From the NCBI GenBank assembly GCA_045837725.1, contig JBEWZL010000121.1:372001-436000 (forward strand): a stretch of 64,000 nucleotides of DNA, read 5' to 3'. The stretch comes from Vermamoeba vermiformis. Lineage: Eukaryota. Positions 36,518 to 45,102 of this stretch are shown one piece after another (the stretch's first letter is position 1; each line of letters begins with the position of its first letter). The notes under the pieces were generated by a model that saw nothing but the letters and a program-made list of their open reading frames with translations, was not told where the DNA came from and ran no database searches. The translations under genes and the position numbers were made by a program.

Positions 36518-37566
36518 TTAATAATCCACACCAGACCAATTCAAATCGACATTTTGACCACATTGCTTAACATCTCCAGAGAATTGCTTGATGGTCGGGA
36601 AGGTCCATCCGCCGAAAGCGCGGAAGTCATCAACTGTACGAGCAGTGTATGAGCTTTAAATCACATATATATTGATGGTATGTACTTACAGTTTTGTTTG
36701 CCGTCATAGCGAGCATACCAAAGGGGGAACTCGCCGCCGTGGGCCCAGTCCAGACCCATGATCTGCTGCCATTGATACAAGCTAGTGTAAATGCCAACAT
36801 TGTAGCCTATGGTACGATCATATAAGGCTCGATACCTATTACACAATGATATGCTTGATATGCGTACCTTTGTTAACAGTGGCCTCGACGAGCTCGTCAA
36901 AGAAGGCTCTGTTCTTGGTTTGATCTTTGTTCCAGAATTTCAACTCCTAATAATCAGTTTAGAATAGGCATGTTGGTATTATTATAGACACAAACCTCGA
37001 TATCGAGCCACATGGTATTGAATATAACTTGATTTGTGTTAAGGTACGTGTACATCTCTTCAACTTGATCAGTGGCAGATTTAGAGCAGAGAGGGCAAGG
37101 GAACATGTAGAGATCAACCTGAGGCATATCTATTGAATGTTAGTCTTTGTATATCGTAAATCATCGCAATCCAACGTACTAGCAGCTTGGGCACTAAAAA
37201 AAGAATAATATCAGAAACTGAATCCAGTACGGAAGAAATTATCTCGCAGTATTAGGCTTACTTCGCAACAGTTTGAGCAGCATTAACGTCGGGCTTGCCA
37301 TTGCTCTGGTAGGCCTGCAAAAAACGTATGATTAGTACGCGTACCGCGATTTTTTGGGTAGATCCGTTTTGGCTCGTAAGAAACGAGTCTTAATTTAATT
37401 CCTTATTATTATTAGTACATACTCTAACACCAGCGAAAGTATATCCCGAGGCGACAAAGCATTCGAATACTTTTTGAGAGGTGGGCTGGCTAACATCCAT
37501 ACCTAAAGTAGCCGCCATGGCGATGGTGGCCATGCCGAGTACTAAGCAAGCAACTGCAACCTTCAT
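36518..37566 (-). CDS. GH25 lysozyme (amoebozoan/nematode Lys type), secreted; multi-exon
   Basis: Signal peptide MKVAVACLVLG, GMDVSQ, VRAYQSNGKPD.N, DLYMFPC, MWLDIE, GIYTS..QW, LWYARYD, FGGWTFPTIKQF. Confidence 0.92.
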
Positions 37567-38054
37567 AGTAGTGTTATGTTGTACTAGAGTGAAGTAATCG
37601 GTACAAATAAAAATTTTGTCGAGCCCGAAAGTCGATCCTTTTTTTTTTTGACGCAGGGCATTCTGCTAAGTTTCAACCTGCTTTGTAGCAACATATCTTA
37701 TGTTTGAATTAAGGTTAGACTCTAGGCCGAGTTATGCCAGAACGATGATGAAAAGCCACAGATTGGCTGCCTGTAACGGCTAGTTCCTTAGAAAAGATTT
37801 TCAACGATTGGTAATTAAAGATAGGCATCAAAATTTACTATTTTAATTAATTTACCGAGCAACTGTTCAATTAAAGTTCGCTAGTAATTTAGTTGAGTTT
37901 TAGATTAATTTTCTTCGTGCAACCAAAAAACGTAAAATTCAGTCGCAATAATCAATATTATTATTTGTCGAAAGCGTCAACCATACGAATTAATTTACCA
38001 AATACGAAAGTACTTTTTGACAGATTAGATTCGATTCCACAGTTATTAATCAAT

Positions 38055-40281
38055 ATGGAAGTCACAAATCTTGCAGATATATCACTAGATCATTATAAAG
38101 ACATAATTACCGACGAATTATACAATGATCTGCTCGAGAAGGTCAAACCATTTGTAGGCAAAACTGTTGTGCACTTCAATGCCACGGCAATTGGTGGTGG
38201 TGTCGCGGAGCTCTTGCAAGGCTTGGTATGTGTTATATTTAAATATATGATACCAATACATCGCCTTTTGTGGCTTACATTTAAACCTGAGTTCCATAAA
38301 AGCCGATCTGAAAAATGACACGCGAAAATTATTTTCCTACTAGGCCGTATTTTACAGCGACCTAGTCGTATAATTCCTTATTTAATATTGTTCTATTAAT
38401 ATCGCGGCTTATTTTCATTCCGTCGTGCATAATTGCGTTGCGAAAATTCGTCTCGAGACGACATCATTGGACTCACGTCTGACAGTTACTGACCAACCGA
38501 TTACAATTAGGTACCACTCATGCGCAGTGTCGGAATTAATACTCGATGGTTCGTAATTCCGCCAAAGTTCGAATCGTTCTTCAAGATCACGAAGAAGATC
38601 CACAACTGTTTGCAAGGCTCTGTCTCCTCGGAATTAACGAAAGAAGAGGAAAAAACATATATAGAGACTAGCAAGCAACTCGCCGAGGTTATGAAAGAGG
38701 TCCACGCTGATTATTGGTTTGTGCACGATCCGCAACCTTTAGGCACCATTTCGTACCTGGCTCAGAAGGTTAGTCTTTGCAAAAATTTATTCCACGTGGC
38801 GATTACTAAATTAATAACAGAGGGCGGATCTGAAGGCGATTTGGCGGTGTCATATTGACTTGGCTGATGCCTCGTGCGAGTGCTGGCATTGGCTCCAGAG
38901 ATTCGTCCGACACTGCGACATCACGATATTTTCAATGAAAGAATTCGTGCCACGTGGCTTCAGATCGCCGCATTTCATAGTACGTTCAGTGAATACTTGC
39001 AAAGATGAATTAAGTCTTCTAACTCGAACGGTTTTTTTCAGATGTTCCCCGCGATAGATCCGCTTCGTCCTAAGAACAAGGAAATGTCGAGCGATGAAGC
39101 CAAGAGGATATTGAGGTACTTCGGGGTCGACACTAATAGGCCTGTTATTGCACAAGTCTCGCGATTCGATCCGTGGAAAGATCCAGTCGGTGTCATCAAG
39201 GCGTATAAACTGGCGAAGAAGCAGATCCCTGACTTGCAATTGATTCTCATGGGTCTCATTCAAGCACGAGGTAGATTTATATATCTATATTTAGGCCTTA
39301 CCGTCGATACTAATAGTGCGCTAATGTGTCTAACATGGTATCTTTGTGCAGACGATCCAGAACAAGAAGAGTACCTGAACAAATCGAAAGAGTATGCAGG
39401 CGATGACAAAGATGTGATTTTCATCTCAGATCCGAACAACTTGCCCGCTGACAATGATACAGTCGTGAATGCAGTGCAGAGTGGATCCGACATCGTCATT
39501 CAGAAGTCGTTGCGCGAAGGATTTGGCTTGGTCGTCACTGAAGCAATGTGGAAAGGCAAGGCTGTAATCGCTGGAAGGTAAGCACCCAAAATTAGATTGG
39601 GCCATTTGAAATTTGACTTTGTCGTGGATGTGGGGCTGAAATCATTCTTTGTGGTGGATCCGTGCCCAGGCTCGGAAATAGGGACCCGAACTCTGAGTTG
39701 CGGAGCGTCTCGGGCACGACCACACTAACAAGAATGCACCGCTTCCCGTCCGATCAGCGAAGTTAAGCTTGTTCAGGCCTTCTTAGTACTGGGGTAGGAG
39801 ACTACCTGGGAATCGGAGGTGTTGTGCTCTTTACTTTTTTGCTTTTTACTCTTTGATCCTTCCTTCGCCGTAGTGCCAATAGTACTTACGTCTGAGTTGT
39901 TTCCAGTCCTTCCGCTGGATCTGCTGAATTTTTTAACTCAAGATCCAATTTTTTGTGCAAATAACTCGCAGTAAAATTAGTACTCATACTTTAATCTTTA
40001 GGGTTGGTGGCATTAAAGCCCAAATCGATGACGGCAAGACAGGTTTCTTGGTGGATCCAGTCAACATTGAGGAGACAGCTGAAAAGATCGTGTATTTGAT
40101 CTCTAACCCCGCAGCGTGCCAAAAGATCTCTGAAGCGGCACGAGAGAGTGTCAGAATGAACTTCTTGTTGCCGAGAATGATGTACAATCATTTGTTGCTG
40201 TTCGCTGAACTTGACAAGATCAAGTACGAAGAACCGAGCTCCGAATCGGAGTCTGAGGGTACCGTTGTACAGCAGTCATAG
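38055..40281 (+). CDS. treT: GT4 trehalose synthase (TreT) / trehalose phosphorylase-like glycosyltransferase; multi-exon
   Basis: HFNATAIGGGVAELL, FFKITKKIHNCLQG, VHDPQP, IWRCHID, PAIDPL..KN, QVSRFDPWKDP.GVI, DDPE, QKSLREGFGLVVTEAMWKGK.VI, VGGIK.QI.DG.TGFLV. Confidence 0.9.
39600..39667 (+). repeat. Degenerate inverted copy of 5S rRNA nt 1-68 (left arm of a fold-back)
   Basis: Ungapped hand alignment to the reverse complement of 39712-39779: 35/68 identical plus 8 G-U-compatible differences; exact blocks GGCC, CATTCTT, CGTGCCC. Confidence 0.65.
39712..39830 (+). rRNA. 5S ribosomal RNA gene, nested in the last intron (39578-40001) of the TreT-like gene
   Basis: 119 nt with eukaryotic 5S landmarks CCCGTCCGATC, GAAGTTAAGC (A box), TTAGTACT, GGAGAC (C box), TGGGAA; terminal helix GGGCACGAC/GTTGTGCTC; T-rich Pol III terminator immediately after. 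Confidence 0.95.
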
Positions 40282-40651
40282 TCAAGCATAGGATAATATA
40301 CTATAGTGTATTCTCAAATAATAAACGCTTATTTATTCTCCTATTATACAAACTTGAGTTACTTGTACTGACACTGTCCATCTATCTTGTAATGATAAGA
40401 ATGTCACATTGGAACTTATTGCGCGTTTACTCAAATCGATTTAAACGCTCTCTGATTGGTCAATTTTGTTACGAAAATGGAAATTGCGAAATCATCGACA
40501 AGCTTAAAATCGAAAACGTTTCTATCCATTCCAACTCAGTTAATTGTACAGAATACCGCATAGGAGGTGCTTATTGTAGTCATTTGATAGACTCTTTCGG
40601 ACCTTCTTATTGTCATAATTCTTTAGTTTTGTATTTTATATTTCTTTCGAT

Positions 40652-42194
40652 ATGTCGCAACAGAACTTGTATCCGCCAATTGAAGGCGAAACTAGCGTGC
40701 CTACTGATTACACTCCGACTCCTGGCGCTGAGCCTGTGAGCAATGTCGATGAAGATGTAATCCAGGCGGGATTGAACAAGTTCAAATCCATCAGCCGTGC
40801 TTTCCAATTGCACTTATTGATTGCATTCAGCGTTTGTAGTTTATTATTTTTCAGTAAGTACTCTTCTAATTAATTTCTATCTTTTTTTCGCATCCGAAAA
40901 AACGAAATAAAAATCTGATTTATTTGCTTATTGGTTATTTTATTAAAAATACTATGCGCATAGCATGAAGATGATTTTCATCATGATTAAAAAATATTTT
41001 AATTAAAGAAACTTTTTTTCGATTGATTTTGCGATCTAACCCGTATCTTTAGTTTGGCATTGGTCTGTTGAACCCAATCCACAAGACGGTTTTTGGTGGT
41101 AAGTGCTCGATAACAATCGTTAAATCGATCACATTCTTCGTACTCTTTAATCGATCAGAAATTTTCGATCCGGATTCCTTGCCCACATTTCAGGAAAACC
41201 AAATGGTTAATTAATACTTATATGAATAGGTGGGTCTATCCTTTCTTCTTCTTCGCGATGACTTTGAGTGCACATTACTTCTTTGGCGCCAAGCAATATT
41301 ACGAAGGAGTTTTGGCGCTTGTTGTGATTGCTAACGTGATGATGTTTATGACTTGGGGCCTTACTAAGTCCACTGGTAAGTACTACATATCATTCATATT
41401 GATCGTGCAGCCGTTGGACTGAGATCCAGCCCGTTACAAATTTATTGATCCTGGATGTGGTTGCTTACAAATGATTCCAGGTTGGTGGTTTATCTTCCCT
41501 ATGTTCGGCTCAGCTATGGTGCTCGTTGTCATTCAAAAGCTGATCACTGGCAGCAAGACCTGGTTCCAAGTTATTACGCACGAGTACGCTTTGATCAACG
41601 GCATGTTGTTCTTGACTTGGCTCACTTTCGGCCAGGTAATTAATACTACTTATAACAATATTATAGGGTCTATGCTATTATTTGCGGAGTTGATTCAATT
41701 TTAAGAAATTTTTTGTACACGCGTTAGATGCAGATCTGCAGTTTATTTTTCTACGAACAAAGAGGTTTTTAATCAATATACTTATTTAATTATATTAGGG
41801 CTTCCCTTGGTTCATCTACCCGTTGTTCTTGCTCGCTCTCCCGTTGATTGTGTACCGTTTGAAGTACGTCCACAATGAGACCCGCACGTGGGTTATGGTC
41901 GGTGTAGTGCTGTTGGACATCAACATCGTCTTGTTCCTCACTTGGGGATTCACTAACGTCGCCTTCCCCTGGTGGCCCTTCCCTGCAGCTGCTTCTTTGG
42001 CCCTCGTCGTGTGGTTGTACATGCGCTGGAAGAACGGTGTCGGACAATTCGAGCGCGTTGGTAATTACAACCCGTCGCAAGTCTACGATCCTGTAGATGC
42101 TACTCCCCAAGCTGCCCCTCAATACTTTGTGGCACCACAGAACGATGCTGTCGCTGAGGTCTATCCGCCTTACAACAGCGCTACTAACGTCTAA
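40652..42194 (+). CDS. Polytopic membrane protein with repeated 2TM-like units; multi-exon
   Basis: About four to five repeats of helix-(T/I)W...W[WF][IVP][YF]P-helix, e.g. FQLHLL...WVYPFF...AHY, WFIFPM, WFIYPL, WWPFP. Confidence 0.72.
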
Positions 42195-42570
42195 AAGTAG
42201 ATCCGATTATTAATTACCTTGTACGTATTGCGATTAAAATTTTTGCTTATTAATTGTACAACGGCGTTTATTATCATTGAGAAAGCAAAGCATAATGCTG
42301 GTCAATTCCATATAATTTACAAGTTGACATTCGGATCGGACTTGATCCGGATCGCGAAACTATATTGTGGATTAGATGTCCGTAAGGGGTTCTACCATAG
42401 CATGAAACGCATTATATAGAAGATTGGTCTCAAACAATTCCACTGCTTTATTATAACACAGAACGTACTACACGACCAAGTGCGTCTTTCGCTGACCAAT
42501 CACGGCTCAGAATACCGCGGCTTAAAGGCTAGAATAAGTGTCAGTTCATCGCGTGTGTGCCGGCACAGTG

Positions 42571-44198
42571 TCAGCCAGTGGCAATGGTAGGTTCGGGCAG
42601 ACTAACACCAATCGATTGTAATATCTGCCGCGCGTATTCTGTGAGTGCTGCGACGTCTTTTTCGTACAAGAAGCACATGAACAACGAGTGCCGGTCTGAA
42701 AGTCTTGGTTTCAGGCCAATTGACAGCCAGTACGGAATGTAGCTCGTCAAATCGTCCATTGAACTTCCGCTATGCACGGCGCTCACTTCAAAGTTTTTTG
42801 TTGGTTCGTTTTCTTTCTTAATCAAGGTAACCAATACTTGCGCGTCCGCAGAAAGAGATTTTACGTGGATGCTCTCGGATGCACCAATTGTCGTCAATAA
42901 ATTCAGCTTGCTGCCATCAAAAAATTCAATATCCGAGACCTCGTAATTTCTATCGTTCTGTTTGGGCAATAATACTAGCACTCCATCGACTAGCGACAAT
43001 TGTTCTTTAAGACTTAATAACGTCTCTATACCAAATTTGGTAATAACGAGCACGTTCCATTCATGAATAGTACGACGCCTCCATAGTTGAAAATTTCTTG
43101 AGGCTACTTCTTGTGTAAATTGCTGCTGCTCCAATACTGTTCGTAATAACTGGATGTGCTCTTGACTGAACGAAATTATATTGGCTTGAAAAATCGTTTG
43201 CGTAGCGTTGTTGTCGTATTTGAGTGTACTTTGCTGGTCCAGATCTCGCCGCATCTGATCCAGAGTGATATTGAACCGATGAAATTTCATTCGATACGGT
43301 CCGTGACGTGCTGACGTAAATAATATAATTATTACTATATTCAATAATAATATTATTATTGCATTAAGCAAAATTAAGCGGAAAAATAATAGGCAACGAA
43401 AATAAATTTGTACACTAATGTACGCGTTAAACATACCTGTCGGGCGGTATTAATACGTCTATTATAAAACTGAAGTTGAAATTTCCGCTGGTAAACTCAA
43501 AATAACGTGGTCCTGTTTGCTTCGGAGTGTGAATCTGAAACAGCGTGGAGCTTTCTAGGGCATTGACTTTTTCAATTTTAACTGGATTCCTCTCAGGCTG
43601 TATTTTTAATGAGCAATTGGCTATGCCTATCAAAATCCAATAAACGGTGCGGATCTGCAGCGTTGTAGAACTGTCAAAGATTCTGCCAATTTGTTTGATT
43701 TTGTTGCATATATCGTCGACTGATTTTCGTTTAGTGCCTATTGATTTCTTGTTTGCATATAAAATTAGCGTTTGATGGGCCAAGCTTGTTTCATTTTGTT
43801 CGCTACTTTCGGAAAAACCATTGAAACTGAAGGAAGGCTCGACTGCGTAGCTAAATTGCGTATCATATTGAAAAGCCTCTGATAAGGCAGTAATTATGTT
43901 GGCATCAGAAGTGCCCTCAACGTCCACTCGCGCTCGTTTTGGTTGTGTTTGCCTTTCGAAAAACAATTAATTAATAGTGAACTTACGAGAAGTTTAGCGA
44001 CGTTATAATGCTTGTTAATGCTAGATATAAGGTATTCTAAAGCAAATAGTACCCGTTCTCGTCTTCGTCCTGCGCATCAGATTCAGTTATTTCTGAGTAC
44101 TTCCTTTTCATAGACGGGGCTTCTACTGTCATTGCCGACCCGATTGTGGTTCTAGTCGTATCGTTTCTGTTATCTTCAACCATGTCTCTTGTTCGCAT
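42571..44198 (-). CDS. Hypothetical protein; three exons
   Basis: Long ORFs 43427-43966 and 42571-43434 separated by an AT-rich GT-AG intron; short upstream exon with an NLS-like KRK; no family recognised. Confidence 0.55.
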
Positions 44199-44731
44199 CT
44201 GTGTTTATTAAAATTTAAAAAGTCCGGCCGGAACAGAGCGGCCGTAATACCACAAAAATGAGTACAATGATTGCTCATTGTTGGATTGAAGATTACTGGG
44301 TGATATCATCAAATAAATGAAACGATCCAACGTCGATCCGGGCCAGCTTTGACCGATCAAATTATCTGTCCTCCAAAAATTGTTCTGTTCGTGTTGGTAA
44401 AATGAGCGCTAATATTACATTTATTTTTTTACCTCTATGTCAAGTCACTACCACAATGCAGCACAAACATGTTGTGTTTCTCTTTGCTTTCCGGATGCTG
44501 CCTGTCAGTAATTCTAAATTAACTACCCAAAATGGCGTGCCGGTATTTTCTATGTCGTGTTGCATCGTTAAAGAATATTTGTTTTCCTTGGGCATTCCTA
44601 TTCTTCAGCCACGTGCGTGTCATTTTTTTTCTTTTAGGAAAGGCAAGGTGAAACTTCAAAGCTAGTTGCGAGGATACCACCAATAGCACATCTTCTGTTC
44701 GGATATTTTTCTATTTACAGAATCTGCCATC

Positions 44732-44971
44732 ATGAGCCAAAATACGAATTCAAATCCAATCCAAAACATCGTCTCAGAACTAGATGAGGCCAAGAATAGT
44801 TTTGAGAGTCTTAAAATACAAGGCACGAGTAGCGAGCATCAAGGTCAGTAGAAATCATAACATTCAGAACGAAATTTTCCTTTACTGATCGCAGATGTTC
44901 TTAGAGCTTGTAGCGCTATTGCTTGGTATATGCTACAACCGGGTCGACATGTTAAACAAGATCATCACTAA
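44732..44971 (+). CDS. Putative small (~62 aa) two-exon protein
   Basis: ATG at 44732, intron gtcagt...tactgatcgcag preserves frame: MSQNTNSNPIQNIVSELDEAKNSFESLKIQGTSSEHQ|DVLRACSAIAWYMLQPGRHVKQDHH*. Confidence 0.45.
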
Positions 44972-45102
44972 GCAAAACGAAGACAAAGAGAATAATCCGA
45001 ATTAAATTACAAAAAAAATTGCTGTATACTTTGTAAAATACGAGCCGCGGATATTTGTAAATTCAAAATCGCTTTATTTAATATACATAATAAATATTTG
45101 AA

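Follow-up and report, generated by a model that had tools for sequence, protein, structure and literature searches.

Pol III genes such as those for 5S rRNA and tRNA can lie nested in introns, and among the papers listed in literature searches for intronic 5S genes, none treats 5S genes in introns, or antisense flanks of such genes, in its title or abstract opening. In plants, the P5SM element controls a suicide exon in the TFIIIA pre-mRNA. P5SM is a 5S rRNA mimic carried by that transcript, as outlined in PMC3378873. Long yeast introns of the RPS17B type contain stems that, in the outline given by PMC2536676, shorten the distance between the 5′ splice site and the branchpoint. Replication template switching produces arms that are perfect or nearly so, and it is outlined as a source of hairpins in PMC8794818.

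The locus described here, found in a 64,000-nt stretch of DNA (the window), resembles each of these systems in part. As in nested Pol III genes, a complete 5S rRNA gene with an upstream element and a T-run sits in a spliced intron, and a second locus (L001) has a single putative intron that contains both a tRNA-Ile gene and a 5S gene. As in RPS17B-type introns, complementary segments are predicted to loop out ~180 of 424 nt; unlike in those introns, one arm is a functional-looking 5S gene rather than dedicated intron sequence, and the stem, which is predicted only, ends ~220 nt before the 3′ splice site. The likeness to P5SM lies in a 5S-shaped RNA element within a pre-mRNA, but the element here is a genuine 5S gene rather than a mimic, its host is unrelated to 5S homeostasis, a cassette exon was not seen and the predicted structure hides the 5S fold rather than presenting it. 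Finally, the inverted repeat is local, has a short spacer and adjoins its presumed source sequence, as template-switch hairpins do, whereas its arms are 51% Watson–Crick identical.

A sequence-only reading of this DNA had proposed that the intron segment upstream of the 5S gene (the arm) is antisense to the 5S 5′ half and was selected to form a fold-back in the pre-mRNA. Here we confirm the fold-back as an observation. The interpretation placed on it is partly supported: its physical prediction holds in folding models, and its claim of selection and function is not supported. We consider it probable, if well short of certain, that the arm arose without adaptation, as an imperfect inverted complementarity next to a dispersed 5S gene, from composition and chance with some local rearrangement. 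It is doubtful that the arm is a selected pre-mRNA structure, which would either sequester the 5S in Pol II transcripts or act as a 'zipper' compacting a long intron. That it is a decayed relic of a local inverted partial 5S duplication (−4 to +68), made for example by template switching and now drifting neutrally, seems to us quite unlikely.

A 5S rRNA gene within a spliced intron

The host gene occupies 37893–40281 (+), and its coordinates and those of the 5S gene and the arm are collected in Table 1. The nearest database relatives are named trehalose synthase, one at 77% identity and others at about 45–54%. Relatives that carry an organism name are few and all bacterial (candidate phyla radiation and others). 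Since the named relatives are bacterial and yet spliceosomal introns are present, the gene is a candidate for horizontal acquisition, and its introns, including the 5S-bearing one, would then have been gained later.

Table 1 Features of the 5S-bearing intron and its flanking exons
Feature	Position	Strand	Remarks
Exon upstream of the 5S-bearing intron	39352..39577	+	Trehalose-synthase-like GT4 host; Glycos_transf_1 Pfam match
Spliceosomal intron carrying the 5S gene	39578..40001	+	424 nt, GT..AG
Antisense arm	39600..39667	+	Locus-specific; G+T 66%; in-register complement of 5S nt 1–68
Direct repeat inside the arm	39607..39659	+	39607–39629 and 39637–39659, 18/23 identical, spacing 30
Spacer (loop of the predicted hairpin)	39668..39711	+	From ~39674, upstream element common to other 5S copies (GGGACCCGAAC..CTGAGTTGC..GCGTCTC)
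Complete 5S rRNA gene	39712..39830	+	RF00001, 104.7 bits, E 6.6e-22, model positions 1–120
T6 run, likely Pol III terminator	39835..39840	+	Inside 15-nt tandem duplication 39822–39836 / 39837–39851
Segment predicted to pair with the 5S 3′ half (MFE)	39847..39876	+	Helices 39786–99::39861–76 and 39808–21::39847–60
Last exon of the host gene	40002..40281	+	ORF and Glycos_transf_1 C-terminal match; joint in contig

Exon–exon joints of the host gene are present in contigs of runs X5 and X7. Across the 5S-bearing intron, a run X5 contig joins 39575 to 40000, skipping 424 nt with GT..AG borders when the cut is placed at +2, and in run X7 a loose end at 40000 that bears upstream exon sequence marks the same junction. 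The constitutive joint 39577|40002 is the only one seen there, and no cassette exon was seen. The neighbouring intron (39271–39351) was likewise seen spliced; at 81 nt against 424 nt, this one verified neighbour makes the 5S-bearing intron look long, which favours a compacting structure. RNA support for the hairpin or for intron retention was sought in the reads of run X21, none of which covers the arm (depth zero on 39584–39647 and 0.09 on 39648–39679), and this counts against a selected structure. Over 39200–39540 the exon reads of X21, a run labelled as the same species, have 6–18 differences each, which suggests that their source is a diverged version of the gene (a second copy, an allele or another strain) rather than this one.

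The 5S rRNA gene is the sole RNA gene that Rfam detects in the window, lies in sense orientation relative to the host intron, is not truncated and exceeds the RF00001 gathering score of 38 by a wide margin (Table 1). Its sequence is that of the organism's expressed or majority 5S: a 124-nt contig of run X6 with a depth of 314 shows 0 differences over 39709–39832, the gene is identical to the L001 5S at 119/119 positions, and run X21 RNA reads pile up on 39712–39839, although these could derive from other identical 5S copies. The +1 position at 39712 agrees with both the Rfam alignment and a jump in RNA read depth at 39712. The gene is followed by TTAC and then by the T6 run, which we take to be the likely Pol III terminator. 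The 15-nt tandem duplication across the 5S 3′ end and the terminator reads TTGTGCTCTTTACTT / TTTTGCTTTTTACTC (39822–39851). Position 39833 is A in the window and in L001 and T in most X21 reads. In two X21 RNA reads the 5S 3′ end region (39831) is joined to 19 A residues, which may reflect oligoadenylation of the 5S or an artefact of the library.

Contigs and reads of other 5S loci align with this locus only from 39674–39683 to about 39839–39853. Because the other copies share sequence only from ~39674–39683 on, the repeated 5S unit does not include the arm. A blastn search with the intron found no copy of the arm elsewhere in the window, in L001 or in L002, another 5S locus; only the 5S unit matched, and on this ground we dismissed the idea that the arm belongs to a repeat or a mobile element. 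A target-site duplication (TCTGAGTTG at 39693 and 39891) was also rejected, as its first copy falls inside the upstream element common to other 5S copies.

Complementarity between the arm and the 5S gene

We reproduced the ungapped alignment that the sequence-only reading had made between the arm and the reverse complement of 5S nt 1–68 (39712–39779), with 35/68 identities and eight further G-U-compatible differences. The chance level that it had put at ~17 agrees with a window-wide mean of 16.7 (sd 3.5), and the segment said to pair fully, UUUGACUUUG(U)/(G)CGAAGUUAAG, forms an uninterrupted 11-bp helix in RNAduplex. With bulges allowed, RNAduplex predicts a duplex of arm and 5S at −55.7 kcal/mol, in which nine helices, all colinear, contain 48 pairs (9 of them G-U).

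An ungapped, in-register match that is anchored at both ends (GGCC and CGTGCCC) and extends 4 bp into −1 to −4 speaks for a decayed inverted duplication, as does the share of transitions among the mismatches (15/33). Small local duplications do occur at these loci, namely the tandem repeat of 15 nt at the terminator and, at L002, the upstream element copied in tandem along with GGGCAC, and template switching is a documented source of hairpins according to the outline in PMC8794818. Homology searches tell against such a relic. No − strand 5S was found at E ≤ 10 over 37000–45000 by cmscan, and none by blastn with word size 7; the opposite-strand 5S homology of an inverted 5S pseudogene was thus not detected, and the ungapped 35/68 match is the only unusual feature. 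When gaps were allowed, a local alignment of the flank with the reverse complement of the 5S scored 12, and 42/700 shuffles reached the same score. The arm also has an internal direct repeat that the 5S does not have; by hand comparison, the 5S segments pairing with the two repeats are about 7/23 alike. To judge from its sequence, this repeat would fit repetitive G+U-rich intron sequence better than designed antisense or copied 5S.

Predicted folding of the pre-mRNA

RNAfold places the fold-back in the pre-mRNA model, as the sequence-only reading had anticipated. Both the MFE and the centroid structure of the intron contain an arm–5S hairpin of 48 pairs and the ensemble expectation is 49.0 such pairs, a result in favour of a selected structure. 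The MFE is −122.3 kcal/mol against −85.6 kcal/mol with the arm held unpaired, a cost of 36.7 kcal/mol. Helix I of the 5S has a probability of 0.99 in the 5S alone and, in silico, of 0.00 with the natural flank attached, so that the hairpin is predicted to out-compete the native 5S fold in the pre-mRNA, in line with the earlier proposal that it stops the embedded 5S from folding. As the arm is located upstream of the 5S start and within a spliceosomal intron whose removal was verified, the Pol II pre-mRNA is the only transcript that can contain it, and here too the earlier account stands.

The predicted hairpin (39600–39779) makes up the 5′ 40% of the intron. Intron-compacting stems have a precedent in the long yeast introns outlined in PMC2536676 and PMC12350175, and the remainder of about 220 nt between the hairpin and the 3′ splice site argues against a selected structure. 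Two minor parts of the earlier proposal failed. The spacer's own stem (GGCUCGGA/UCUGAGUU) is absent from the MFE, which has 39672–75::39686–89 and 39691–95::39701–05 instead. The downstream complementarity to the 5S 3′ half proved to be at chance level (−29.5 for 39839–39888); the best energy in the downstream flank, −34.1, is equalled or beaten by 91/18,201 background windows. A 16-nt inverted repeat, 81% complementary, links the intron start (39582–39597) with a site ~45 nt before its 3′ end (39943–39958); it may form another end-to-end intron contact and is absent from the modelled MFE.

The predicted loss of helix I also means that no 5S-like fold would be shown to uL18/L5. The host is a Glycos_transf_1 gene in which only a constitutive joint was seen, and not a gene of the 5S pathway such as TFIIIA with a regulated cassette exon in its pre-mRNA. 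The 5S-protein-sensing splice switch that had been proposed by comparison with P5SM lacks a rationale in a trehalose-synthase-like glycosyltransferase gene, and a P5SM-like sensor is not supported.

Pairing relative to chance

The chance tests were post hoc, made at a place picked for looking unusual. Among 63,932 + strand offsets the arm alone reaches 35/68, and the unrelated site 43168 reaches 34/68. Of 25,462 background 68-mers, taken from both strands at a step of 5, the strongest pairs with the 5S at −51.1 kcal/mol against −55.7 kcal/mol for the arm; this site, 34943 on the − strand, is G+U-rich antisense of coding sequence. The shuffled-flank controls that the earlier note had called for came out in favour of unusual pairing: 0/2000 dinucleotide shuffles of the arm reached its energy (minimum −54.1), and 3/700 shuffles of the flank did so. 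Among composition-matched natural windows, 2/461 were as good as the arm locus. We also calculated a net interaction energy, ddG = F(flank150+5S) − F(flank150) − F(5S), which was −14.4 for the natural flank and −2.5 ± 2.4 for shuffles; none of the 250 shuffles was as low, which supports a selected structure. Together, these values put the pairing moderately beyond chance, at roughly a 1-in-100 to 1-in-300 event for a gene neighbourhood, which is noteworthy and no proof of design.

A large part of this pairing is due to composition. The 5S 5′ half is 59% C+A, and because it is C+A-rich, G+U-rich sequence pairs with it readily: dinucleotide-shuffled 150-nt flanks average −42.1 kcal/mol, against −30.8 kcal/mol for natural 150-nt windows. 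In 35–37% of composition-matched shuffled flanks (37% of 120), the probability of helix I fell below 0.1. Since random flanks matched in composition abolish helix I in about a third of cases, a special arm is not needed for the predicted 'masking', and this weighs against a selected structure. More generally, folding programs will show a C+A-rich structured RNA gene in a G+U-rich intron as 'masked' in roughly one case out of three, and an in-register complement of 35/68 is expected in about 1 in 100 gene neighbourhoods. The stability of the intron as a whole is ordinary, with a z of −1.24 and 12/100 shuffles folding at least as well.

Tests for selection on the structure

The sequence-only reading had pointed to eight differences between the arm and a perfect complement that allow G-U pairs, and had named the lack of a G-U bias as an outcome that would tell against selection. 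We found no bias: 8 differences are G-U-compatible, against 7 non-pairing transitions and 18 transversions, and by its own measure the proposal of a selected hairpin is thereby weakened. The sense duplex is 13 kcal/mol better than the antisense duplex (−55.7 vs −42.6), and this advantage at first looked like an RNA-level signature (7/1500). Sense and antisense energies correlate among shuffles, however (r 0.57), and the antisense energy expected given the sense energy is −42.3 ± 3.4, so that the observed value of −42.6 has a z of −0.09. The candidate signature vanished after this conditioning, and the z of −0.09 marks the asymmetry as a by-product of picking the site on its sense energy. Neither G-U bias nor sense-strand bias is left after selection on energy is accounted for, which counts against a selected structure. 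The pairing possible on the antisense strand is itself unusual, with 7/1500 shuffles reaching its energy, as would be expected of a relic of inverted duplication.

A conserved structured RNA would show covariation or a G-U strand bias; here the transition counts are near equal and the conditioned strand asymmetry is null. With the whole-intron stability added, the claimed selection for the hairpin finds no RNA-level signature.

Other 5S copies and a close relative

A scan of metagenome contigs yielded two further 5S loci, L001 and L002; scans of genome contigs and viral contigs with a 26-nt 5S pattern gave 0 matches. L001 holds a full-length 5S at 13–131 (−). A GTAAGT 5′ splice site lies 438 nt upstream of it, in a Peptidase_M24 gene whose Pfam match ends at profile position 96/208, at the exon end; this 5S is probably sense-intronic as well. 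Between the splice site and the 5S lies a tRNA-Ile(AAU) gene at 388–461 (−). The two RNA genes are ~260 nt apart in the one putative intron, with a T-run after each. At L002, a PIP5K exon ends at a GTAAGC site, and a 5S truncated at about nt 50 (1319–1368, +) lies ~160 nt beyond it; here the upstream element is tandemly duplicated together with GGGCAC. In a MAFFT alignment the upstream flanks of the three loci share only a short upstream motif, with no homology beyond about −40.

The window-derived test was applied unchanged to these loci, pairing −150 to −1 with 5S nt 1–68. The check proposed in the earlier note, whether other intronic 5S copies have antisense arms, gave a weak echo at L001 (P 0.012–0.08) and none at L002. 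The L001 flank is unrelated to the window arm and pairs colinearly over 5S nt 1–68 at −54.3. Among natural windows 5/6336 pair at least as strongly, as do 12/700 shuffles and 2/170 matched windows. At L002 the energy of −30.7 is the median, with 3129/6336 background windows as good. The tendency towards complementarity thus replicates weakly at L001, the sole other full-length copy examined, and the shuffle and matched-window counts there lend some support to a selected structure. Several features of L001 run against that account. Its ddG is not significant (21/250 shuffles), its antisense strand is the more stable one (−57.1 vs −54.3), and the geometry of the pairing differs between the two loci. 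The upstream element is present a second time at L001, at about −148, and this copy supplies part of the pairing.

A close relative of the locus is represented by a 151-nt contig of run X6 (depth 2.6) that covers 39527–39670 with 7 indel events in 39585–39624 and 5 substitutions. The indels from 39599 on sum to zero, and a reconstruction from the indels alone retains pairing at −58.0, a point for a selected structure. The variant fits maintained pairing and G+U-rich promiscuity equally, and we draw no conclusion from it. For a decayed relic these 7 indel events are awkward, as they make the survival of an ungapped register surprising at ~0.8 substitutions per site, a divergence calculated from the 51% identity.

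Origin of the arm

We favour the non-adaptive account of the arm because of the composition effect, the near-equal unrelated sites (34/68 and −51.1), the ordinary stability of the intron, the chance-level downstream pairing, the position of the arm outside the shared 5S unit, the lack of a homologue of the arm in L001 and L002, the direct repeat inside it, the median value at L002 and the lack of an RNA-level signature of selection. Counting against it are pairing beyond composition-matched nulls, colinearity in register over all 68 nt, the echo at L001 and the pairing retained in the indel reconstruction from run X6. The 5S unit in the intron comprises the ~40-nt upstream element, the 119-nt consensus-identical gene and the T-run, and the 68 nt upstream of the unit are locus-specific, G+U-rich and internally repetitive sequence that pairs readily with the C+A-rich 5S 5′ half. 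Their in-register match to nt 1–68 could have arisen by chance, or could be the trace of an ancient duplication nearby, inverted or made by template switching. A hairpin of ~48 bp would form in the Pol II pre-mRNA once the 5S 5′ half is transcribed, and the Pol III transcript would be free of it. Such a hairpin would keep the 5S from its native fold and take about 180 nt of the intron into a loop; we infer that it is incidental rather than a mask that evolved.

Selection of the arm, if real, would mean that RNA structure is used by a genome to settle the conflict of a nested Pol III gene with the Pol II transcript of its host, and the arm would be a new kind of cis element. There is only a slim prospect that sense-intronic 5S genes recurrently and independently gain an upstream complement of nt 1–68 that masks the 5S fold in a compact, splice-competent pre-mRNA, a proposal prompted by the colinear upstream complementarity of 2/2 full-length copies examined.

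The more useful lead may be the position of the 5S elements. Each of the three seen is sense-oriented and follows closely on a GTAAG 5′ splice site, in trehalose-synthase-like, Peptidase_M24 and PIP5K genes; with three loci, and with the downstream exons of L001 and L002 missing, this is a lead rather than a result. The 5S copies also share a conserved motif 10–40 nt upstream, (A)GTGACCC(T)GAAC ... GAGTT ... (GCGTCTC), found at 39681–39711 in the window, at about 140–205 (−) in L001 and at 1231–1318 in L002. The motif is a candidate upstream Pol III promoter element. Its core resembles, by eye, the reverse complement of 5S nt 60–68 (7–8/9).
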